64,000 nt of DNA. Source: Minisyncoccia bacterium. Its GTDB lineage: Bacteria; Patescibacteriota; Minisyncoccia; Phycocordibacterales; UBA5272. Below the pieces are notes generated by a model, which worked only from the letters and a program-made list of their open reading frames with translations, made no database searches and was not told where the DNA came from. The stretch is from contig JBBQKQ010000002.1 of the NCBI GenBank assembly GCA_038326985.1, positions 2,978-66,977 on the forward strand, in the 5' to 3' direction. The translations under genes were made by a program, and so were the position numbers. Position 1 is the stretch's first letter; each line of letters starts with the position of its first letter. This document shows, in pieces, positions 5,020-59,099 of the stretch.

Positions 5020-5053
5020 ATTTGTATTTTTGTAATTATATCATAAAATTAAA

Positions 5054-5087
5054 GACCCCTCTTAACCTCCCCTTGGTAAGGGGAGGG
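5054..5087. repeat. Palindromic repeat family copy a, intergenic: GACCCCTCTTAACCTCCCCTTGGTAAGGGGAGGG
   Basis: Stem CCTCCCCTT / AAGGGGAGG with a 3 nt loop. It sits immediately 3' of the minus-strand GT2 gene stop and is near-identical to the copies at 19314 and 27347. Confidence 0.8.
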
Positions 5088-5094
5088 AAAATTC

Positions 5095-6381
5095 CTATCT
5101 CCACTCTCCAGCACGTTTTGTGAGAGTATTATAAAGTGCTCGAGCAAACCACCAAGGAACAATAAACTCCCATAAGAACATATAATAAAGTATGTAATGT
5201 AGTTTGCGGTTTTCTTTAAGTGAAAGATGATGTCCCATAAGCATAAAAATTATTCCAGAGACCAGAACTGGAACTACAAGAAAATATAGAAAATCTGTTC
5301 GAAAATATATTTTCATAAACATATCTATTAAGTCATAATGGTGAAAAATCATATCTAGTTTTAAAACCTGCCAAGTTTGGTAAAGGTGAATTATCTTTTT
5401 AACAAAAGTGTAGATAGTAAACAAGGCGATATATAAAACCATAACAACTCCCACCCATCCCAGAGGAATTGTAAGCATTGCAACATTGCCATATTTTGGA
5501 CGAAGTATCATATCTTTGTAATCTAAAGAGTTTTGCATGAATCCTTGGGTCCAACGAAGTCTTTGTTTATAAAGCTTGTAAAAAGTATCGGGTGTAGAAG
5601 TTTCAACATAGGCATCGGTAGCAGATACAATTTTCATAAAATTTTTTTGCATACGAAAAGTTATTTCCATGTCTTCGGTATTGTGCGCCGGTTTATAACC
5701 GCCAATTTTTTCAAACACTACACGTCTAAAAAGTGAAAATGGACCAGGTGTAACATGTATTCCATTTATCGCAGAAAATATTCTTTTTAATAGTAGTCCA
5801 AAATTGTACTCTACACTTTGTATTGCTTGAAGGATATTTTCTGGTTTACGTACCACCATCATTGGAGTAACTGCCATCACCTCTTTATTTTCTTCGAATG
5901 GTATGAGCATATTTTTTAAAGCGTCAGGAAAAACAAAAGAGTCAGCATCTAGACATCCAAATATTTCACAGTCAGGGTTTTTCTCAAGCACAAAATTTAA
6001 AACTGTGTGTTTCCCACCATTTTCTTTTTGAAGAACAATAAGTTGGTCAAACTTGTCATATTTTTCCTTGCAGTTTTTAAGAATTTCAAAAGTATTGTCT
6101 TTAGACCCATCGTCAACTGCCCAGATTTTAAATTTGTATTTTGGATAATTTATTGCCAAAAGCGAAAGAATAGTTTTTTCTACCGTCTTACTTTCATTCC
6201 AGCAGGGTACTGCAATTACAACTTCTGGATAGTAGGTTAAGTTTTTTTCTTTTGTTGAAGCAAAAATAGTGTCCCATTCTTCAAAAAGTACAATCAACAA
6301 ATACACTTGTACGTAAAGGGCAATAAAGGTAAATAAATAAATTGGGTAAACCTCCATAAATTTGTCTGTATTATACAACAA
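5095..6381 (-). CDS. Processive family-2 glycosyltransferase (cellulose/chitin/PNAG synthase-like), integral membrane
   Basis: GT2 motifs AVPCWNES...DDGSKDNT and DAD, the QRLRWTQG (QxxRW) processivity motif, and multiple TM helices flanking the catalytic domain. Confidence 0.75.
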   Translation of the reverse strand: MLYNTDKFMEVYPIYLFTFIALYVQVYLLIVLFEEWDTIFASTKEKNLTYYPEVVIAVPCWNESKTVEKTILSLLAINYPKYKFKIWAVDDGSKDNTFEILKNCKEKYDKFDQLIVLQKENGGKHTVLNFVLEKNPDCEIFGCLDADSFVFPDALKNMLIPFEENKEVMAVTPMMVVRKPENILQAIQSVEYNFGLLLKRIFSAINGIHVTPGPFSLFRRVVFEKIGGYKPAHNTEDMEITFRMQKNFMKIVSATDAYVETSTPDTFYKLYKQRLRWTQGFMQNSLDYKDMILRPKYGNVAMLTIPLGWVGVVMVLYIALFTIYTFVKKIIHLYQTWQVLKLDMIFHHYDLIDMFMKIYFRTDFLYFLVVPVLVSGIIFMLMGHHLSLKENRKLHYILYYMFLWEFIVPWWFARALYNTLTKRAGEWR

Positions 6382-19192: not shown

Positions 19193-19833
19193 ATAATCCA
19201 AAAAAATTAATTGCCTACAGTATTATTTTTATAATTGGATATTTTTTAGGAGACAAAACAATTCAAAACTTTTCTTTAGACAACTTAAAAATCACCCTTA
19301 GTCCCTCTAATCAGACCCCTTCTAGCCTCCCCTTGGATAAGGGGAGGGACCTCATTGCAACTAGTACAAAATATATTGTAAATTATGTTGTAGATGGTGA
19401 CACTATTCATGTAAAAAATGAAAATGGCGTTGAGACTAAAGTAAGACTTTTAGCAGTAAATACTCTTGAGCTTCATGCAACGAGCTCAAGAGAAAAATGC
19501 TTAGCAGAACAAGAAAAACAGTTCACTAAACAAAACCTTCTAGGAAAAGAGGTTGTTTTAACAGCTGATCCCACTCAACCAAAACTTGATAAATATGGTC
19601 GAAGTTTGTTTTATATTAGCCTCACCCCACCTCGAAACGATGGCAAGGGTACACTTGAAGCGAAGCAAGAGGGAGAAGAGCAAACCTTTAATGAATTATT
19701 GATGAAAACTGGAAATGCGAAAATTTATAAGTCTTCACCACCTGCACAAATGTATACAAAATATTTAGATTTACAAAATCAAGCAATTCAAAGTCGTGTT
19801 GGTATTTGGGACCCGACAAATTGCAAATTATAA
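19180..19833 (+). CDS. Thermonuclease (staphylococcal nuclease, SNase)-like secreted or membrane-anchored nuclease
   Basis: N-terminal TM helix and an SNase core: YVVDGDTIHV...KVRLLAVNTLE...DKYGRSL. Carries in-frame palindromic repeat copy b. Confidence 0.7.
   Translation: MYYLNNPKKLIAYSIIFIIGYFLGDKTIQNFSLDNLKITLSPSNQTPSSLPLDKGRDLIATSTKYIVNYVVDGDTIHVKNENGVETKVRLLAVNTLELHATSSREKCLAEQEKQFTKQNLLGKEVVLTADPTQPKLDKYGRSLFYISLTPPRNDGKGTLEAKQEGEEQTFNELLMKTGNAKIYKSSPPAQMYTKYLDLQNQAIQSRVGIWDPTNCKL
19314..19348 (+). repeat. Palindromic repeat family copy b, in-frame inside the SNase-like gene
   Basis: GACCCCTTCTAGCCTCCCCTTGGATAAGGGGAGGG, translated as TPSSLPLDKGRD. Confidence 0.8.
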
Positions 19834-20319: not shown

Positions 20320-20404
20320 GCCCGGGTGGCGAAATTGGCAGACGCACTAGCCTTAGGAGCTAGCGAGGCAACTCATGAAGGTTCAAGTCCTTTCCCGGGC
20401 ACCA
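20320..20404 (+). tRNA. tRNA-Leu (anticodon TAG), type II with long variable arm and encoded CCA
   Basis: Hand-folded cloverleaf: acceptor GCCCGGG/CCCGGGC, D stem GCG/CGC, anticodon stem CTAGC/GCTAG, loop CTTAGGA, 13 nt variable arm, T loop TTCAAGT, 3' ACCA. Confidence 0.8.
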
Positions 20405-20660
20405 AAATGGAACTTAAAATTTTTGAAGAAGCAGAAATGCGGGACGCGCGAAGCGCCTCCCAATGGTTTCCGCCTAGATTTCCCCCAGAATCCGCAGAAG
20501 AATCTGCCAAAAATAAATCCGAATTTGGCGCGCAAGCGTGTGGAGTTTTTTCGCCGAGGAGGAGGTGCGAGCCAAAGATTTCTTCGGCACAGACCTTTTT
20601 AGAAAAAAGGTCTGAATCAGAAGCGATTTTGTCCAAGGATTGAGAGTCTTTTAGCCAGTT
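20405..20660. other. GC-rich (~50%) noncoding-looking segment between tRNA-Leu and the IS remnant. Function unknown.
   Basis: Composition strongly deviates from the ~30% GC surroundings. Local hairpins include GCGCGAAGCGC and CAGACCTTTTTagAAAAAAGGTCTG. The overlapping ORFs on both strands look spurious. Confidence 0.3.
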
Positions 20661-20989: not shown

Positions 20990-21680
20990 CTCTGTATAAG
21001 TGGACACAGTTTTGGTACATACTCAAATACCAATTAGGCTTTTGTTGCAAGCTATTTGGCTAATCATCTTTTCTAAACAAGGTGTCAATACTATGGAGTT
21101 AGTAAAAATGTTAGGCATGAAAAGTGAGAGATCTGGCTGGGACTTATTGCAAAAAATACTTAGTGCTATGGTCAAAACTTCAGCCAATTTACTATCTAGT
21201 TAGTAGAAATAGACGAGGTTTTCCTAGAAGGCGAGCATGCTGGTAAGCGTGGTTGAGGTGCCTTTGGTAAAACTTTGATACTTGTGATAGTTGAAGACAA
21301 AGTCGAAGCTAGATTCGGTAGAATACGAATGTGTGTCATAAAAAATGCTGAAGATCAAACTTTGTTAAAAGCCATACAAAGTATGGTATCTGTTGGCAGT
21401 ATAATTCGTAACGATCAACACAAAAGTTATTCACTCATAAAAGAGCATTACTACGAGCATAAACCTGTTGCTAAAGTTGTTCATAAACTTGGAGAAGACA
21501 ACACACCACTTGTGCAAAAAGTGGCTTCACTTTTTAAAAGGTGGCTTTTAGGAACTCATCAAGGTGGCATGGAACCTTTGTATATTCCATCTTACCTATA
21601 TGAATACACTTTCCGTTTTAATAGACTAAAATCCAAATCTCGTGATAAACTATTATTCGATAGAAAATCTAATTAAAAAA
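20990..21680 (+). pseudogene. Decayed IS1595-family (ISXO2-like) transposase, split into at least two frames
   Basis: 21000-21203 encodes HTQIPIRLLLQAIWLIIFSKQGVNTMELVKMLGM, matching the F.NTKIPLRKWF.AIYL...KGISS.QLAR HTH region. 21275-21676 encodes DNTPLVQKVASLFKRWLLGTHQGGMEPLYIPSYLYEYTFRFNR, matching the C-terminal HTN.IE..WS.LKR...GTYH.VS.KHL..Y..EF.FRYNNR signature. The catalytic core between them is missing or fragmented. Confidence 0.6.
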
Positions 21681-27035: not shown

Positions 27036-27704
27036 GTGCTAAGTAAAGAAGCGCAGTTTCTAAAAAAGAAAGATAAAATATTGGGTAAAATAATTTTAGA
27101 GGATTTACCTGTGCTAAAAAGTAGGGGAAATGTCTACGAGTCGTTACTCTCATCAATTATTTCTCAACAAATTTCATTAGGAGCAGCAAGATCAATAAAA
27201 GAAAAATTCTTAAAATTATTCAATAAAAATACATTGAAATTTCCACGCATAAAAGAACTATTGGAAATAAGCGACGAAGATTTGAGAAGTGCCGGACTTT
27301 CGAAACCAAAAATAGGTTATATGAAAAATGTTGCAGAACATTATAAGACCCCACCTAGCCTCCCCTTGTTAAGGGGAGGAACAGTGCAATATGAAAATAT
27401 GAGTGATAGTGAAGTAATAGCAGATTTAGTAAAAATAAAGGGTGTGGGAGAGTGGACAGCTGAAATGATACTTATTTTTTCCCTACTTAAACCGGATGTG
27501 TATTCTTATAAAGATTTAGCATTAACAAATACTATAATCGAAACTTACAATATAAAAAAAGACAACTACACTCCAAAACAACTGAAAGAAGAAGTTTTAA
27601 AAATAACTGACAAATGGTCCCCGCACCGAAGCTTGGCTTCTAGATATTTATGGGAATATAGAGGTAAAAAGAAAATAAAATTAATAAATAAAAATCTCAC
27701 TTGA
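27036..27704 (+). CDS. HhH-GPD superfamily DNA glycosylase (AlkA / 3-methyladenine glycosylase II-like), GTG start
   Basis: HhH-GPD core VKIKGVGEWTAEMILIFSL...D. Contains in-frame palindromic repeat copy c just upstream of the HhH motif. Confidence 0.65.
   Translation: MLSKEAQFLKKKDKILGKIILEDLPVLKSRGNVYESLLSSIISQQISLGAARSIKEKFLKLFNKNTLKFPRIKELLEISDEDLRSAGLSKPKIGYMKNVAEHYKTPPSLPLLRGGTVQYENMSDSEVIADLVKIKGVGEWTAEMILIFSLLKPDVYSYKDLALTNTIIETYNIKKDNYTPKQLKEEVLKITDKWSPHRSLASRYLWEYRGKKKIKLINKNLT
27347..27380 (+). repeat. Palindromic repeat family copy c, in-frame inside the glycosylase gene
   Basis: GACCCCACCTAGCCTCCCCTTGTTAAGGGGAGGA, translated as TPPSLPLLRGGT. Confidence 0.8.
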
Positions 27705-31361: not shown

Positions 31362-32684
31362 ATGATACTGAAAGATTTAGATAAATTTAAGCTTCCGGAC
31401 GAAAGTGGAGTTTATTTTTTTATGGGACCCCCCCTAACCCCCCCTTATACAGGGGGGGAAGAGAACATCCTTTACATTGGTAAAGCTACAAGTTTAAAAA
31501 GTAGAGTTAAAAGTTATTTTGATAATAATATTTTACATACCCGTGGTCTTCACATTGCAAACATGGTGAGCTTGGCCAAAAGTATTAAATTTGAAACTAC
31601 AAGAAGTGTTTTAGAAGCACTTCTGCTTGAGCAAGAGCTAATAAAAAAACATAAACCAAAATTCAACAGCGAAGCAAAAGATGATAAAAGTTTTTTTGTT
31701 TTGGTGATAACAAAAGAAGATTTTCCTAGAGTACTACTAGTAAGAAACAAAGATATAGACAAAGAAAATAACCTAGTTTTAAAAAGTAAATTACTTGGTA
31801 AGAAAGTAGAAAATAAAAAAGAAATTGTAAAAGTTGAAAAAACTTTCGGACCGTATTCAAGTGGGCAAAGTGCAAAAGATGCTTTAAAGCTTATTCGTAA
31901 AATTTTTCCATTTCGAGATAAATGTGATCTTTATGACAAGAAAAAATCTTGGCAAAAAAAAGCCTGTTTTTCATATTCTATAGGTCTGTGTCTAGGAACG
32001 TGTGCTGGAGTAATTTCTAAAACGAAATACCAAAACCATATTGAAAGACTAATAACTTTTTTAGAAGGGGATGGGGAAAAGGTGCGAAAAGATTTAGAAA
32101 AAGATATGCAAACTGCCAGTGACAAATTAGAATTTGAAGAAGCGCAAAGAATAAAAGAAATACTTTTTGCGCTCGAGCATATTCGAGATTCTCATCTTAT
32201 AAATCGTGATATAAAAGAAGAAAATAAAAGCACTCGTATAGAGGCTTTCGATATCGCACACATGTCTGGTCAAAACAGAGTCGGGGTAATGGTGGTTGTA
32301 CAAGGTGGAGTCCCTAATAAAAGCCAATACAAAAAGTTTAAAATCTCGAAAGATGAAAACGACGACTTAGAAGGATTAAAAGAGCTTTTTTTAAGAAGAA
32401 TAAAACACTTGGAATGGGGAATACCAGATGTAGTTATTGTTGACGGTGATGAAAGACATATAAATGTTGCAGAAAAAATTTTAATTGAAAACAACCTAGA
32501 TAAAACAGTAAAAGTTGTAGCAGTAACAAAAAACCGCCAACACAAAGCACAAAAAATAACAGGTGATAAAAAAATTGTGGAAGAGTTTCAAAGAGAAATA
32601 ACTTTAGCAAACAGCGAAGCCCATAGATTTGCAATAACTTATCATAAAAATTTACGCAAAAAAAGTTTTATACCTAAAAACTGA
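31362..32684 (+). CDS. uvrC: UvrC-like excinuclease, short 440 aa form: GIY-YIG, Cys-rich, UVR and RNase H-like start, but lacking the C-terminal Endo V-like and HhH2 domains
   Basis: GIY-YIG motifs GVYFFM...ILYIGKATSLKSRVKSYF. Cys cluster CDLYD..CFSYSIGLCLGTCAG. UVR motif EFEEAQRIKEILFALEHI. IEAFDIAHMSGQ motif. The ORF ends where the canonical C-terminal domains would follow. Carries in-frame repeat copy g inside the GIY-YIG motif. Confidence 0.6.
   Translation: MILKDLDKFKLPDESGVYFFMGPPLTPPYTGGEENILYIGKATSLKSRVKSYFDNNILHTRGLHIANMVSLAKSIKFETTRSVLEALLLEQELIKKHKPKFNSEAKDDKSFFVLVITKEDFPRVLLVRNKDIDKENNLVLKSKLLGKKVENKKEIVKVEKTFGPYSSGQSAKDALKLIRKIFPFRDKCDLYDKKKSWQKKACFSYSIGLCLGTCAGVISKTKYQNHIERLITFLEGDGEKVRKDLEKDMQTASDKLEFEEAQRIKEILFALEHIRDSHLINRDIKEENKSTRIEAFDIAHMSGQNRVGVMVVVQGGVPNKSQYKKFKISKDENDDLEGLKELFLRRIKHLEWGIPDVVIVDGDERHINVAEKILIENNLDKTVKVVAVTKNRQHKAQKITGDKKIVEEFQREITLANSEAHRFAITYHKNLRKKSFIPKN
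31426..31466 (+). repeat. Palindromic repeat subfamily-2 copy g, in-frame in the uvrC-like GIY-YIG motif
   Basis: GACCCCCCCCTAACCCCCCCTTATACAGGGGGGGAAGAGAAC, translated as GPPLTPPYTGGEEN, between GVYFFM and ILYIGKA. Confidence 0.8.
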
Positions 32685-41111: not shown

Positions 41112-41729
41112 TTATTTTTTTAGACTACTAATTTCTTTTAGTAAAATCTCTAGTGTATTTTCTATTTTTTCCAAACGTGCTTTTTGCTCGAAACGGCGGC
41201 GTTTCTCGTCCTGCTCGGCAATTAGTTCTTCTTCATCTTCCATCATTTCTTCTTGGATATCTTCCACGTCTTCTGCGAGCTCATCAACTGTTTTATTCAT
41301 TTCTTCCACATCTTCACTCATTTCTTCCATGTCTTTAGAAACATCCGCAACATCTTCTTGTATTTCATCAACGTCTTTTTCAATCTCATCTACACTTGCA
41401 TTTATTTCCTCTACATCTTCCTGAATTTCTTCCATGTCTTCCTGGATCTCCTCAATATCTTCTGATACTTCTTCAATAACTTGAGTTTGCCTATTTATAG
41501 AAATTTGGATAAAAAGCGCAAGGTAAATTGCTTCTAGAGATAATATTGTAGTTAATACAATTAAAGTGTCCTGATAAGAAAAATTTGTAACCAATGGAAA
41601 TACTAAAAATAATATAAACAAAATAGTGTGTACAACAATTGAGGTCATAGAGCCAAAAGCAGCAGTAAACTTTTCGTCAATATTTACTATTTTAGCTTTA
41701 CTTTTCTTTTTAGAATTGGATTTGACCAT
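41112..41729 (-). CDS. Membrane protein with two TM helices and a highly acidic heptad-repeat tail (EE[IM]QEDxEE x ~12)
   Basis: Tandem 21 bp-periodic repeats at about 41215-41470 encoding EDIEEIQEDMEEIQEDVEEINASVDEIEKDVDEIQEDVADVSKDMEEMSEDVEEMNKTVDELAEDVEDIQEEM. Confidence 0.45.
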   Translation of the reverse strand: MVKSNSKKKSKAKIVNIDEKFTAAFGSMTSIVVHTILFILFLVFPLVTNFSYQDTLIVLTTILSLEAIYLALFIQISINRQTQVIEEVSEDIEEIQEDMEEIQEDVEEINASVDEIEKDVDEIQEDVADVSKDMEEMSEDVEEMNKTVDELAEDVEDIQEEMMEDEEELIAEQDEKRRRFEQKARLEKIENTLEILLKEISSLKK

Positions 41730-41757: not shown

Positions 41758-44172
41758 ATGAAAATGCAAGATAAAATACCTTACGAACCAAAAGATATAG
41801 AAAAAAAATGGCAAGACGTTTGGGAAAAGAATAATTTATATAAAAGTGAAATAGATAAAACAAAAACAAAAATGCATGTTTTGGATATGTTTCCATATCC
41901 AAGTGGAGAAGGACTCCATGCAGGACATGCTAAAATTTTTGGAGCCTCAGACATTTATGCCCGAATGAAAAGAATGCAAGGTTTTAATGTTTTAAAAGTA
42001 CAGGGCTATGATGCTTTTGGACTTCCAGCAGAACAGTTTGCAATTAAAAATAAGGTCAACCCAAAAATTTCTACCAAAAAAAATACAGAAAACTTTGAAA
42101 GACAAATGCGACGCCTTGGACTTTCTTATGACTGGAGTAGAAGTGTAAACACAACTGACCCAAAATTTTACAAATGGACCCAATGGATATTTAAACAACT
42201 TTATAAAGATGGACTCTGTTTTGAAAGTCATGAGCCAATAAACTGGTGCCCAAGTTGTAAAACAGGTTTGGCAAATGAAGATTTGGAAGACGGAAAATGT
42301 GAGCGTTGCGGGAGTGTTGTAGAGAAAAAACCAATTCGTCAGTGGGTAATAAAAATAACAGACTACGCTGAAAAACTTTTAAGCGGAGTGGATAATTTAA
42401 ACTGGAAAGAAAGTATAAAAGAAATGCAGAGAAATTGGATTGGGAAAAGTGAAGGAGCGGAAATAGATTTTAGATTAAGTACTAGCCAAACTTTTACCGT
42501 TTTTACAACTCGTCCAGACACACTTTTTGGATGTACTTATTGTGTATTTGCGCCTGAAAATAAATTAGTAGAAGAATTGTTAAATAATAATTTAATTAAT
42601 AATGGGAACGAAGTTAAAAAATATATTTTAGAAGTAAAAGATAAATCTGAAATAGAAAGAACCTCTTCTGGTAAAGAAAAAACCGGTGTAAAACTTGAGG
42701 GTGTATTTGCAATAAACCCCGCAAACCAAAAAGAGGTGCCAGTCTACATTGCAGATTATGTATTAAACAATTATGGAACAGGAGCTATTATGGCGGTACC
42801 AGCACATGACGAGCGAGACTTTGAGTTTGCAAAAAAGTTTGATATAGAAATAATAGAATTAGAAAAGTTTGAAGATAAAAATGAAATAGTAAAAAAAGTT
42901 GGAGGGAAAATGGTTACAAAATATAAACTTCGTGACTGGGTATTTGCAAGACAGAGATATTGGGGTGAGCCTTTCCCAATTGTATTTGACGAAAACCACA
43001 ATCCATTTGTAGTTGCAGACTCTGAACTACCGGTAATACTTCCTGATGTAGAAAGTTATGAGCCAACTGGAGATGGAGAGAGTCCGTTAAAAAATATACA
43101 AGAGTGGGTAGAAGTAAATGGAAAAATAAATAGCGAGGGAGAATTTGAAAGTGATGAAAATGGAAAAATATTTTATAGAGAAACAAATACAATGCCCCAA
43201 TGGGCAGGAAGTAGTTGGTATTGGCTAAGATACATGGACCCTCATAATGATCAGGAAATGGTAAATAAAGAAATTGAAAAATATTGGGGGGATGTCGATA
43301 TCTATCTTGGGGGAATGGAACATGCAACTAGGCATTTAATATATGGTAGATTTTGGAACCAATTTTTATTTGATAAAAAAATAATCTCTACTCCAGAACC
43401 CTTTAAAAGACTTGAAGCTGTAGGGCTAGTGCTTGGAGAAGGTGGTATGAAAATGTCTAAAAGACTCGGAAACGTAATAAATCCAGATGACATTGCTGAT
43501 ATTTTTGGAGTGGATACACTCAGACTATATATTGCTTTTGCTGGGGACTATCATGATGACTATACTTGGGATACAAAAGCTATAGTTGGACCTAGAAGAT
43601 TCATTGAAAGAGTTTGGAATATGCAATACAAGATCCAGACCCCCCCTAGCCTCCCCTCAATTGAGGAGGGGAATAGTTCCCCAAATATCAAGCTAACAAC
43701 TTTACTACACCAAACAATAAAAAAAGTGAGTAATGACTACGAAAAACTACAGTTCAACACTGCTGTGGCTCAGATGATGACATTTATTAATGCGTATGAT
43801 AAAAATGAAAACATTGATTTAGAAAGTTATAAAACTTTACTAAAACTTCTAGCACCGATTTGTCCATTTGTGACAGAAGAAATATGGGAAAGCCTCACCC
43901 CGGCCCTCTCCATAGGAGAGGGAGCAATGCAATCTATTCACCAAGAAGAATGGCCAAAGTATGATGAGCTGCAAACTATAGACAAAGTTGTTAATATCGC
44001 CATACAAATCAACGGTAAATTGCGTGACACATTTTCTATAGCTACAGACAGCCCTGACGTGGAAGTTTTAGAAGTAGCAAAAAATAGAGAACAATATAAA
44101 AAATGGGTAGGTGAGGTAGAGCCAAAAAAAATAATTGTAATTAAAAATAAAATAGTAAATGTTGTACTTTAA
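41758..44172 (+). CDS. leuS: Leucine--tRNA ligase
   Basis: HIGH-type motif PYPSGEGLHAGHA, KMSKS-type GMKMSKRLGN, and CP1/editing and Zn-binding Cys regions. Carries two in-frame palindromic repeat copies. Confidence 0.9.
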   Translation: MKMQDKIPYEPKDIEKKWQDVWEKNNLYKSEIDKTKTKMHVLDMFPYPSGEGLHAGHAKIFGASDIYARMKRMQGFNVLKVQGYDAFGLPAEQFAIKNKVNPKISTKKNTENFERQMRRLGLSYDWSRSVNTTDPKFYKWTQWIFKQLYKDGLCFESHEPINWCPSCKTGLANEDLEDGKCERCGSVVEKKPIRQWVIKITDYAEKLLSGVDNLNWKESIKEMQRNWIGKSEGAEIDFRLSTSQTFTVFTTRPDTLFGCTYCVFAPENKLVEELLNNNLINNGNEVKKYILEVKDKSEIERTSSGKEKTGVKLEGVFAINPANQKEVPVYIADYVLNNYGTGAIMAVPAHDERDFEFAKKFDIEIIELEKFEDKNEIVKKVGGKMVTKYKLRDWVFARQRYWGEPFPIVFDENHNPFVVADSELPVILPDVESYEPTGDGESPLKNIQEWVEVNGKINSEGEFESDENGKIFYRETNTMPQWAGSSWYWLRYMDPHNDQEMVNKEIEKYWGDVDIYLGGMEHATRHLIYGRFWNQFLFDKKIISTPEPFKRLEAVGLVLGEGGMKMSKRLGNVINPDDIADIFGVDTLRLYIAFAGDYHDDYTWDTKAIVGPRRFIERVWNMQYKIQTPPSLPSIEEGNSSPNIKLTTLLHQTIKKVSNDYEKLQFNTAVAQMMTFINAYDKNENIDLESYKTLLKLLAPICPFVTEEIWESLTPALSIGEGAMQSIHQEEWPKYDELQTIDKVVNIAIQINGKLRDTFSIATDSPDVEVLEVAKNREQYKKWVGEVEPKKIIVIKNKIVNVVL
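43638..43671 (+). repeat. Palindromic repeat copy d, in-frame in leuS
   Basis: GACCCCCCCTAGCCTCCCCTCAATTGAGGAGGGG, translated as TPPSLPSIEEGN. Confidence 0.75.
43893..43928 (+). repeat. Palindromic repeat copy i (subfamily-2-like), in-frame in leuS
   Basis: CCTCACCCCGGCCCTCTCCATAGGAGAGGGAGCAATG with stem CCCTCTCC/GGAGAGGG, translated as LTPALSIGEGA. Confidence 0.6.
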
Positions 44173-49721: not shown

Positions 49722-50819
49722 ATGAAAAATAAAAAAGTATTTGTTGGACTAAGTGGAGGAGTAGACTCGAGTGTATCAGCATATTTATTAAAAAAATCTG
49801 GCTTTGATGTGACAGGAGTTTTTATAAAAGGTTGGCAACCAGATTGGATTCCTTGTACATGGATGTCAGATAGAATATCTGCAATGCGAACGGCTGCATA
49901 CTTGGATATTCCATTTATTACTCTTGATTTAGAAATGCAATACAAAAATAAAGTTGTGAGTTATTTACTTGAAGAATACGCAAAAGGGCACACTCCAAAT
50001 CCGGATATGCTTTGTAATAGAGAAATAAAATTTGGAAGTTTTTTAAATTGGAGTTTGAAAAATGGTGCCGACTATGTTGCCACTGGGCATTATGCACAAA
50101 ATTATAAAAATCAACTTTTAGAATCAATAGACAAAGAAAAAGATCAGAGTTATTTTTTATCACAGCTAACTCAAAAAGAGTTGCAACATATTTTATTTCC
50201 AGTAGGGCATTTGGTAAAAGCAGAAGTTCGAGGAATTGCAGCTCAAGCAAAATTGCCTGTTGCAACTAGAAAAGACTCTCAAGGAATATGCTTTGTAGGA
50301 GACTTATCAATGAAAGAATTCTTAAAACGAGAACTTAAGCCAGAAAAGGGAAATGTTGAGAACGTAGATGGGGAAATAATTGGTGAACACGATGGGGCTA
50401 TACTTTACACTATCGGCGAAAGACATGGGTTTACTATAATTAACAATACTGAAAATCAAAAACAATTTTATGTTGTCAAAAAAGATGTTGAGAAAAATGT
50501 GATTGTGGTTTCAGACTCACCCCTAACCCCTCTCCTTCAGAGAGGGGAAGAGAACAAAAAAGAAAAATTTATATATTTAAATGATTTTTCTTTTACACAA
50601 AATATTGATGAGGTGCAAAATAGCAAAAATTTATCTATAAGAATTCGCTATAGAGGTGCAAAAGTCGCAGTAAAATTTATTTCTTATAATGTATCTGAAA
50701 ATATAGTTGTGGTTGAGACTGAAGACAATTTAGTTTTTGATTTTGGACAATTTGGGGTTTTATATGACCGTGAAAGATGTCTGGGTGGTGGAGTAATTTC
50801 TACAAATGTGGTAGAATAA
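49722..50819 (+). CDS. mnmA: tRNA-specific 2-thiouridylase
   Basis: PP-loop VFVGLSGGVDSSVSAYLL, catalytic Cys region DMLCNREIKFG, and GHYAQ. Carries in-frame repeat copy h. Confidence 0.85.
   Translation: MKNKKVFVGLSGGVDSSVSAYLLKKSGFDVTGVFIKGWQPDWIPCTWMSDRISAMRTAAYLDIPFITLDLEMQYKNKVVSYLLEEYAKGHTPNPDMLCNREIKFGSFLNWSLKNGADYVATGHYAQNYKNQLLESIDKEKDQSYFLSQLTQKELQHILFPVGHLVKAEVRGIAAQAKLPVATRKDSQGICFVGDLSMKEFLKRELKPEKGNVENVDGEIIGEHDGAILYTIGERHGFTIINNTENQKQFYVVKKDVEKNVIVVSDSPLTPLLQRGEENKKEKFIYLNDFSFTQNIDEVQNSKNLSIRIRYRGAKVAVKFISYNVSENIVVVETEDNLVFDFGQFGVLYDRERCLGGGVISTNVVE
50525..50566 (+). repeat. Palindromic repeat subfamily-2 copy h, in-frame in mnmA
   Basis: GACTCACCCCTAACCCCTCTCCTTCAGAGAGGGGAAGAGAAC, translated as DSPLTPLLQRGEEN. 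It shares the CCCTAACCC head and GAAGAGAAC tail with copy g. Confidence 0.75.
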
Positions 50820-51550: not shown

Positions 51551-51593
51551 TACCTACTTGCAATTATTTTAAATAATGTTATTATTGTAATTG

Positions 51594-51720
51594 CTGGGTG
51601 GGGGTCCCCCCCGATGACCCACCTAGCGCATGCTGCTGCATCGCCCTACGCAGCAGCAGAGTGGTCCGAACTCCTGGAAGATTAGAGCTATTAAGCTCTC
51701 ATCCAGGGGTTCGGCCATTT
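51594..51720 (+). ncRNA. Candidate structured small RNA or complex terminator: ~125 nt, ~60% GC, three hairpins, ending in a terminator-like stem plus T-tract
   Basis: H1: GGTGGG...CCCACC around a C7 run. H2: TGCTGCTGC-atcgccctac-GCAGCAGCA (9 bp). H3: a 14 bp interrupted stem GGtCCGAACTCCTGG...CCAGGGGTTCGGCC enclosing AGAGCT-atta-AGCTCT, followed by ATTTCTCTTTGCATTTTT. It lies between the stop at 51550 and the rpoB promoter. Confidence 0.3.
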
Positions 51721-55143: not shown

Positions 55144-55235
55144 TAAATTTTTTCAAAACAAAACTCCTTAAACAAAAAAAATTTGTATCAGGCAAATTAA
55201 AATAAACTGGCTTCAGTGCACATTACAAGTTACAA

Positions 55236-55270
55236 AACCCCTCCTAACCTCCCCTTGATTAAGGTGAGGA
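55236..55270 (+). repeat. Palindromic repeat copy e in the rpoB-rpoC spacer, or in-frame at the extreme rpoC N-terminus if the 55216 start is used
   Basis: AACCCCTCCTAACCTCCCCTTGATTAAGGTGAGGA, translated in the 55216 frame as TPPNLPLIKVRN. Confidence 0.7.
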
Positions 55271-55284
55271 ACGGGCAAATAAAT

Positions 55285-59035: not shown

Positions 59036-59054
59036 TGGTAATATTAGAAATATA

Positions 59055-59099
59055 AATCCTCCCTAGCCCTCCTTGAGAAAGGAGGGCTAGGGAGGATTT
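59055..59099. repeat. Palindromic repeat family copy f: the longest and perfect copy, a 19 bp stem, intergenic between rpoC and dnaG
   Basis: AAATCCTCCCTAGCCCTCCTT-gagaa-AGGAGGGCTAGGGAGGATTT, a perfect inverted repeat. Confidence 0.8.

Follow-up and report, generated by a model that had tools for sequence, protein, structure and literature searches.

How does an essential gene come to contain, twice and in frame, a short palindromic sequence that its close orthologues lack? The question is raised by leuS, the leucyl-tRNA synthetase (LeuRS) gene in a 64,000-nucleotide stretch of DNA from a Minisyncoccia bacterium (assembly GCA_038326985.1, contig JBBQKQ010000002.1, positions 2,978 to 66,977 of the forward strand). 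This whole stretch is called the window below, and its first letter is position 1. We consider it very likely that the two leuS segments are repeats of the BoxC/PIT/TM family, acquired separately and kept because the surface loops that bear them tolerate insertions and deletions (indels). Repeats of this kind are reportedly also to be credited to Bachellier et al. (1990s) and to Hoyne et al. (2000). They are the BoxC repeats of Escherichia coli, rediscovered as potential intrastrand triplex (PIT) elements, TM_ECO (Holder et al. 2015, PMC4666352).

Two GC-rich segments within leuS

The window is AT-rich (~33% GC) and ~93% coding, with 50 of its 57 open reading frames (ORFs) on the + strand, which GC skew identifies as the leading strand over the entire window. 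The leuS product is a clear bacterial LeuRS, as judged from its Pfam matches and from the Protein Data Bank LeuRS entry 1h3n (E = 1e-170). Two islands of 60-70% GC stand out within the gene, both translated in frame, with hairpin centres ~253 bp apart. The original prediction, which had placed two palindromic insertions about 250 bp apart in leuS, is confirmed inside ORF 41758-44172. The gene and the two elements are as follows.

41758..44172, + strand: leuS, leucyl-tRNA synthetase, 804 aa, the host gene (ORF; Pfam tRNA-synt_1, LeuRS editing domain, Anticodon_1)
43637..43681, + strand: copy d, type-A-like triplex motif in leuS (covariance model R1, repeat family D2, pLDDT)
43893..43932, + strand: copy i, type-B triplex motif in leuS (E. 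coli match, triplex detector, pLDDT, orthologue gap)

Copy d (core 43640-43671) opens with AGA and the box CCCCCCC (43640-43646), followed by the linker TAG (43647-43649), a first arm CCTCCCCTC (43650-43658), the loop AATT (43659-43662), a second arm GAGGAGGGG (43663-43671) and a tail; its peptide is TPPSLPSIEEGNSS, LeuRS residues ~627-641. Its stem is degenerate, with one G-T pair and one mismatch. Copy i consists of the box CCTCACCC (43893-43900), the linker CGG (43901-43903), the arm CCCTCTCC (43904-43911), the loop ATA (43912-43914), the arm GGAGAGGG (43915-43922) and the tail AGCAATGCAA. It encodes LTPALSIGEGA, a net gain of 8 codons (TPALSIGE) over orthologues. Folding was computed with ViennaRNA, whose use here covers hairpins only: copy i forms a perfect 8-bp stem of -8.0 kcal/mol, and the hairpin of copy d is weak (z = -1.0).

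Evidence for placing both leuS copies in the BoxC/PIT/TM family

As Holder et al. describe it (PMC4666352), the E. coli motif follows the pattern CCCTCNCCC N3-6 GGGNGAGGG N3 GGGNGAGGG, with a second loop of type A (TTA) or type B (CCG), and the strand, once isolated, adopts a triplex in vitro. This pattern, with its two loop types, fits the complement of the window copies. The complement of copy i reads CCCTCTCC TAT GGAGAGGG CCG GGGTGAGG, hence a type B motif, and the TAG linker of copy d is type-A-like (complement CTA). Under the ITxF definition, three blocks follow one another on a single strand, namely a pyrimidine arm, its purine complement and a block that mirrors this complement; stems are of 6-15 nt with at most one mismatch, and loops of 1-6 nt. 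Copy i has these three blocks (CCTCACCC/CCCTCTCC/GGAGAGGG, loops of 3 and 3, perfect Watson-Crick stem), the one T-to-A change in its box giving a permitted T.A-T triad. Copy d fits loosely (CCCCCCC/CCTCCCC(TC)/GAGGAGGGG, loops of 3 and 4, two imperfect stem positions). The term palindromic, under which the segments were originally reported, is thus right for the hairpin part and incomplete for the whole, the defining feature being the third block that mirrors a hairpin arm and makes the element a BoxC/PIT/TM triplex motif.

A covariance model, R1, was built from eight type-A copies, of which the window supplied six and a relative two; both leuS copies were excluded. Copy d scores 37.1 bits against this model (E = 2.4e-7). 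Independent of the model, a generic triplex detector, which asks for a pyrimidine arm, a complementary arm and a mirrored upstream box and applies no other criterion, picks out 9 + strand sites in the window, including both leuS copies; 100 dinucleotide shuffles yielded a mean of 0.04 sites and a maximum of 1. A chance origin of the repeats is excluded. At gathering score, an Rfam scan of the window returned three tRNAs only, and no family matching the repeats.

When copy i was compared by blastn to 5,426 complete E. coli genomes, matches were obtained in 4,393, at a median of 4 places per matching genome, and at least 80% of the query was covered in 4,160 of the 5,426. The best match is identical at 32 of 34 positions (94%), including four bases past the stem. 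Among the matches listed, none of 10 hits overlaps an annotated feature. Copy d has no match in the E. coli genomes; its arms are of a type often met among the metagenome matches listed.

The rule that the box mirrors the arm extends well beyond the window. The pattern CCTARCCNCCCCTT N3-4 AAGGGGNGG has matches in at least 120 metagenome contigs ranging from 30% to 70% GC, and a single match among 2.9 million viral contigs. When pyrimidine-arm hairpins were counted de novo in the metagenome contigs, the matches listed gave at least 12 arm types, in each of which the box mirrors the arm (CCTCCCC with CCCC[T/A]CC; CCCCTCC with CCTCCCC; CTCCCCC with CCCCCTC; CCCTCTCC with CCTCACCC). For 90 asymmetric-arm copies from the window and the unrelated metagenome contigs listed, the box is a perfect mirror in 79 and a direct repeat in 20; permuting the boxes among these copies reached the observed score in 0 of 2000 trials. 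The box carries T or A opposite an arm T, as the purine motif permits. Across copies, box and arms therefore vary together as mirror images, which is the relation that BoxC/PIT/TM demands. The leuS copies are members of this family, as different subtypes.

Read on the sense strand, each leuS copy comprises a C-rich box, a linker of 2-3 nt, a mirror pyrimidine arm, a loop and a complementary purine arm. The complementary, G-rich strand has the textbook order of blocks for an intrastrand triplex of the class II purine motif, a pyrimidine arm being followed by a purine arm and a reverse-Hoogsteen purine block, with G.G-C, A.A-T and T.A-T as the predicted triads of the antiparallel purine motif.

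Three other interpretations of the blocks were considered and dropped: an i-motif, since a folded mirror repeat would yield antiparallel C-C pairs; a pseudoknot with downstream G-runs, since no such G-runs are conserved in the window; and coding-level selection as the source of the mirror box, since the rule also holds in metagenome copies, which are mostly outside long ORFs (85 of 137 type-A copies among the matches listed).

Two further arrangements were seen in metagenome contigs (L numbers are our handles). Contigs L116, L129 and L123 contain tandem arrays of family copies, with periods of 72-81 nt, in stop-free frames of 550-1280 codons. These arrays read as PPNPPLLRGG-type units, so that the element builds repetitive protein segments in some bacteria. 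In L100, L120, L125, L133, L139, L144 and others, CCCCTCCTT lies 8-12 nt 3' of the purine arm; being a mirror-type arm, it suggests composite elements in which two hairpins share one purine arm.

Evidence for separate acquisition

A set of 120 LeuRS homologues was used for alignment and for locating indel hotspots. Site i shows a clean gain of 8 codons within the consensus EEIWxxLGxxxSIH, at which T. thermophilus LeuRS has a 9-residue gap. At site d, in the variable linker after RFIERVWxxQYK, the window protein is ~10 codons longer than its relatives. Both sites are empty in the sister orthologue P0003/L208, in L209 and in L004; L208 and L209 have no leuS copy, and their 16-23 kb of syntenic DNA gives at most one weak detector hit, on the opposite strand, in L209 mnmA. 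Family copies with other arms, CCTCTCC and CCCCC, are present at site d in L001 and L002. L003 carries copies at two further loops (around window residues 245 and 471) and a decayed composite copy at site i. A neighbour-joining LeuRS tree places lineages with empty sites in between the occupied ones. A LeuRS scan limited to one genome per species found only relatives of at most 56% identity, none with an element within 10 kb of leuS.

Copies d and i are shown to have entered leuS as separate events, because their subtypes differ (TAG versus CGG linker, different arms) and P0003/L208 has neither. The original proposal of two independent insertions therefore holds, the orthologue alignments presenting both as gains. 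Across the relatives, independent gains are also a simpler reading than one old gain with turnover, given the interleaving of occupied and empty lineages on the tree.

In the competing history, site d would have been filled once, long ago, in an ancestor of the clade, with losses in some lineages and sequence conversion from other copies afterwards; the occupied site d of the relatives would then not represent independent hits. The start position is indeed nearly identical in three lineages, copy d is degenerate, as an old copy should be, and the Pro/Gly-containing peptides that P0011 and P0022 have at site d could be decayed remnants. However, the three site-d copies differ in their arms (CCTCCCC, CCTCTCC, CCCCC), each with a matching box, so that a route through point mutations would demand triple coordinated changes. 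Moreover, no remnant is seen in P0003 and P0005, the closest sisters, and the neighbour-joining tree would call for four losses or more. We therefore regard a single old insertion as unlikely.

A proposed basis for the tolerance of the repeats in leuS

An AlphaFold model of the window LeuRS was obtained with a mean predicted local distance difference test (pLDDT) value of 88.7 and a predicted template modelling (pTM) score of 0.85. The pLDDT falls below 50 in two places only, residues 631-640 and 717-722. These correspond to the two inserts, and each forms a loop between helices. Sites d and i, and both additional positions occupied in L003, are general indel hotspots that also bear unrelated insertions in other lineages among the 120 homologues. 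The earlier placement of both copies in the anticodon-binding region is correct for copy i, found inside the Anticodon_1 match (LeuRS residues 648-769), in the loop that comes after the helix bundle and precedes the C-terminal domain; copy d occupies the linker that leads directly into Anticodon_1 and the anticodon-binding helices. Two reasons had been offered for the double hit, tolerant surface loops or a preference for particular insertion sites, and it is the first that these data bear out.

Site preference would require targeted integration, that is, a mechanism recognising sequence or structure at these leuS positions. Some of the observations point in this direction. The site-d elements of the window, L001 and L002 begin 1-3 codons past the conserved QYK, with empty sisters interleaved on the tree; site i is occupied in two distant lineages; and several empty sites hold GGAGAG, which matches the purine arm and is a potential microhomology (L208 and L001 at site i, L004 at site d). 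Against this, eight window copies share no motif outside the element ends. These ends are conserved (AGA 5' of the box, AAnAG..CA 3' of the stem), and the outer flanks have the 37% A that is found over the + strand as a whole. The A-rich flanks suspected to be a target-site motif are thus in part element ends and, beyond them, background. The window host sites are otherwise unrelated (SNase and MnmA linkers, GIY-YIG hairpin, spacers). Because all four occupied leuS loops are indel hotspots, with unrelated insertions elsewhere, selection for tolerant loops is favoured over targeted insertion. Targeting is neither demonstrated nor required by the data, and its probability appears distinctly low.

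In the interpretation based on tolerance, copies would survive only in frames free of stop codons, and each leuS copy would persist by virtue of lying in an indel-tolerant surface loop. C-runs followed by G-runs give Pro-rich and then Gly/Glu-rich peptides, so that loops would be formed naturally.

A domain insertion is also present in this enzyme family. The LeuRS relatives P0002-P0005 and ~40 other homologues (e.g. L001, L002, L208, L209) are 950-1150 aa long; where the editing domain begins, near window residue 245, they bear an inserted NUDIX domain (PF00293). This domain is present in the sister P0003 and missing from the window LeuRS.

Other copies in the window

Combining a repeat finder and a hairpin scan, we count nine family copies in the window, six of them in frame within genes. 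Those located outside leuS are the following.

5053..5096, + strand: copy a, intergenic, between two minus-strand genes (repeat finder, hairpin scan, covariance model)
19313..19356, + strand: copy b, in frame, linker of a membrane-anchored SNase-like nuclease (repeat finder, covariance model)
27346..27389, + strand: copy c, in frame, HhH-GPD (endonuclease III-like, nth) gene (repeat finder, covariance model)
31425..31468, + strand: copy e, arms of C only, in frame in uvrC, within the GIY-YIG domain (repeat finder, covariance model)
50514..50557, + strand: copy g, arms CTCACCCC-TAA-CCCCTCTCC, in frame, mnmA inter-domain linker (hairpin scan, covariance model)
55235..55278, + strand: copy h, rpoB-rpoC spacer, ~15 nt upstream of the rpoC ATG (repeat finder, covariance model)
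59054..59099, no strand assigned: symmetric double copy (box-arm-loop-arm-box), rpoC-dnaG spacer (hairpin scan, covariance model, triplex detector)

Copy g is the window copy closest to copy i. It is not a clean insertion, as it replaces an mnmA linker of near-equal length. The double copy, ATCCTCCCTAGCCCTCCTTGAGAAAGGAGGGCTAGGGAGGAT, is perfectly symmetric, with a box on either side of one hairpin; it resembles the 'palindromic' configuration described for E. coli BoxC in the cited part of PMC4666352, and could be a transcript-end hairpin as well.

The gene of copy b contains, inside the SNase domain, a segment at 19619-19650 (GCCTCACCCCACCTCGAAACGATGGCAAGGGT, peptide SLTPPRNDGKG). It is possibly a decayed second copy, in which case a second gene would perhaps have received two hits.

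With the genome ~93% coding, most landing sites would be genic. The fact that 3 of the 9 copies lie in the ~7% non-coding portion is expected if landing is broad and selection purges harmful copies. Two reading frames are used by the window copies. Frame counts in metagenome ORFs, among the matches listed, are 19, 19 and 0; the frame that is never used is the one in which the TAA/TAG linker would be a stop codon. All eight asymmetric copies are on the + strand, including copy a between its minus-strand genes (two-sided sign test, p ~0.008).

Such a strand bias hints at a strand-linked constraint, and could be taken to mean that the inserts are retained for a function: a new protein loop of benefit to LeuRS, a structure in the mRNA or DNA that regulates leuS expression, or a local promoter of recombination. 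Copy h places AAGGTGAGG ~15 nt before the rpoC start codon, and RNA can form pyrimidine-motif triplexes, according to the cited passages of PMC4666352. Yet the same short repeat recurs in unrelated proteins and spacers, and the leuS inserts are missing from close orthologues and are modelled as disordered. Earlier work, as related in those passages, assigned the E. coli motifs no promoter, terminator or regulatory role (PMC4666352). A functional role in leuS is accordingly very improbable.

Counter-evidence and mode of spread

Several points weigh against identifying the leuS segments as separately inserted BoxC/PIT/TM repeats. In E. coli MG1655 the motif is described as always intergenic and without strand bias, its copy number varying widely between related strains (cited part of PMC4666352); here, six of nine copies are genic, with leuS, uvrC, mnmA and nth occupied in frame, and eight of eight asymmetric copies are on one strand. 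The intergenic, unbiased distribution is a description of the E. coli copies and not part of the structural definition of the family. Even in E. coli, the same passages report triplex formation in vivo as not detected (PMC4666352). With two non-Watson-Crick stem positions and a weak hairpin, copy d may no longer be able to fold. Copy i is marginal against the type-A model R1 (12.2 bits, E = 0.33), the grounds for its membership being its E. coli match and its conformity to the triplex rule. The concern raised at the outset, that the second copy fails a formal model and is a chance palindrome, is thus justified in its first half for the type-A model; the second half fails, since copy i is identical at 32 of 34 positions to a widespread E. 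coli repeat. Finally, the net gain is smaller than the element: 24 nt at site i for an element of 34-40 nt, 3 codons in mnmA, and ~9 codons in uvrC for an element of 14 codons. It follows that simple insertion is not the whole story.

The strand bias on what is the leading strand, the reduced net gain and the presence of GGAGAG at empty sites sit badly with simple insertion or with simple neutrality. They are compatible with copying linked to repair or replication and with selection against a G-rich strand on the lagging-strand template, at which they hint. A more far-reaching proposal would make BoxC/TM repeats, commonly regarded as a static curiosity of intergenic DNA, a selfish element that actively spreads across phyla, colonises coding sequence in compact genomes, lands in a fixed replication orientation and is copied by repair or template switch. 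The window would then keep the G-rich, triplex-prone strand off the lagging-strand template, and a template switch would be anchored on the GGAGAG microhomology to the purine arm, overwriting part of the loop. Such partial overwriting would make the net gain smaller than the element length. If this is correct, the in-frame sites in essential genes would yield the first precise pairs of filled and empty sites for a repeat whose manner of spreading has been a question since the 1990s. We put it forward tentatively, and think it rather unlikely in this full form.

Comparison with known repeat families

The window elements share with BoxC/PIT/TM repeats the order of the three blocks, a G/C-rich composition, stems of 7-9 nt, loop sizes, and the linkers TTA/TAA and CCG/CGG. 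They are likewise dispersed and multi-copy, differ sharply in copy number among related genomes, and include palindromic double copies. Apart from their distribution, two differences are apparent. The host is an AT-rich bacterium resembling Patescibacteria, of the candidate phyla radiation, a group that goes unmentioned in the cited part of the E. coli motif survey (PMC4666352). In addition, most window copies have CCTCCCC or CCCCCCC arms instead of CCCTCNCCC.

Rickettsia palindromic elements (RPE), which Ogata et al. reportedly described in 2000, are said to be ~100-150 bp long, to form long stem-loops and to lie in frame in essential genes of Rickettsia only. They resemble the window elements in being selfish repeats found in frame, at surface positions, in essential genes of a reduced genome. 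They are not known to have a mirror block, a relationship in sequence would not be expected and, at 31-45 nt, the window elements are shorter. The small dispersed repeats (SDR) of cyanobacteria, reportedly described by Elhai et al. (2008), are said to be 21-27 nt long, to contain hairpins, to show signs of mobility and to insert into conserved sequences, in which they would resemble the window elements. Many metagenome copies starting with GATCCCCCCCTA may be cyanobacterial, and an overlap with SDR families may exist.

MITEs (miniature inverted-repeat transposable elements) have terminal inverted repeats and a target-site duplication, and are usually longer than 50 bp. The leuS and other window copies might be miniature transposons of the RPE, MITE or repetitive extragenic palindrome (REP/REPIN) type, moved by a transposase. 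Their in-frame occupation of genes is RPE-like, and a fragment of an IS1595-family transposase is present at 21275-21673. But the elements, at ~31-45 nt, are below 50 nt, encode nothing, and show no terminal inverted repeats beyond the hairpin and no visible target duplication in their flanks. REP/REPIN sequences (PMC3116915) are also short (20-40 nt), GC-rich, palindromic and dispersed; they differ in being extragenic, in having a GTAG head and inverted pairs, and in their RAYT gene. The window elements have no GTAG head and are mostly genic, and no RAYT gene was found among 17 window ORFs scanned. The conserved mirror block is foreign to RPE, MITE and REP/REPIN families alike, the viral contigs hold the one match given above, and in the passages cited Holder et al. 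report no tie to transposons, phages or plasmids (PMC4666352). Transposase-driven movement is, in our estimate, extremely improbable.

The GC clusters of yeast mitochondria and the coding palindromes of Nematomorpha mitochondria (PMC6649704) are likewise short, GC-rich or palindromic sequences lying in frame in a compact, AT-rich genome. They differ in being organellar, in sequence and size, and in having a hairpin without a third, mirrored block.

Novelty and implications

The kind of element is already described. That it enters the essential genes of a bacterium from the candidate phyla radiation and leaves their reading frame intact appears to be unreported. The literature searched contained neither in-frame occupation of essential genes nor a host from this radiation nor near identity to E. 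coli copies, and a search with the repeat sequences as text strings returned no bacterial paper. Ever since BoxC/triplex repeats were described in E. coli, their function and spread have eluded explanation, and published work treats them as intergenic. Here, the family proves able to invade coding sequence, with two in-frame copies in leuS and others in uvrC, mnmA, nth and a nuclease gene, and conserved orthologues supply the exact before-and-after sites. For a family common to Proteobacteria and candidate-phyla-radiation bacteria, horizontal spread, a universal copying mechanism and strong structural convergence are candidate explanations. For annotation, the implication is that short Pro/Gly-rich protein insertions in such genomes are repeat-derived, not functional motifs.

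Additional features of the window

The transposase fragment at 21275-21673 is a truncated IS1595-family (ISXO2-like) DDE transposase covering profile positions 40-153 of 153, probably the decayed form of an insertion sequence. A tRNA gene (20320-20401) and a GC-rich stretch (20417-20566) are found just upstream of it.

Between a 173-aa ORF and rpoB, the 115 nt at 51574-51688 reach 77% GC and are self-complementary (GGGTGGGGGTCCCCCCC...GCAGCAGCAG). They have no Rfam match at gathering score and the neighbouring ORF has no Pfam match; the base composition and self-complementarity suggest that the segment may be an unannotated structured RNA.

Divergent from leuS, the minus-strand gene at 41112-41729 encodes a small DUF1003/DUF948-like protein, and this synteny is kept in relatives. 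Within the gene, positions 41248-41478 form 105-nt tandem repeats with an inner period of 21 nt, coding for acidic EEIQEDxEE repeats.

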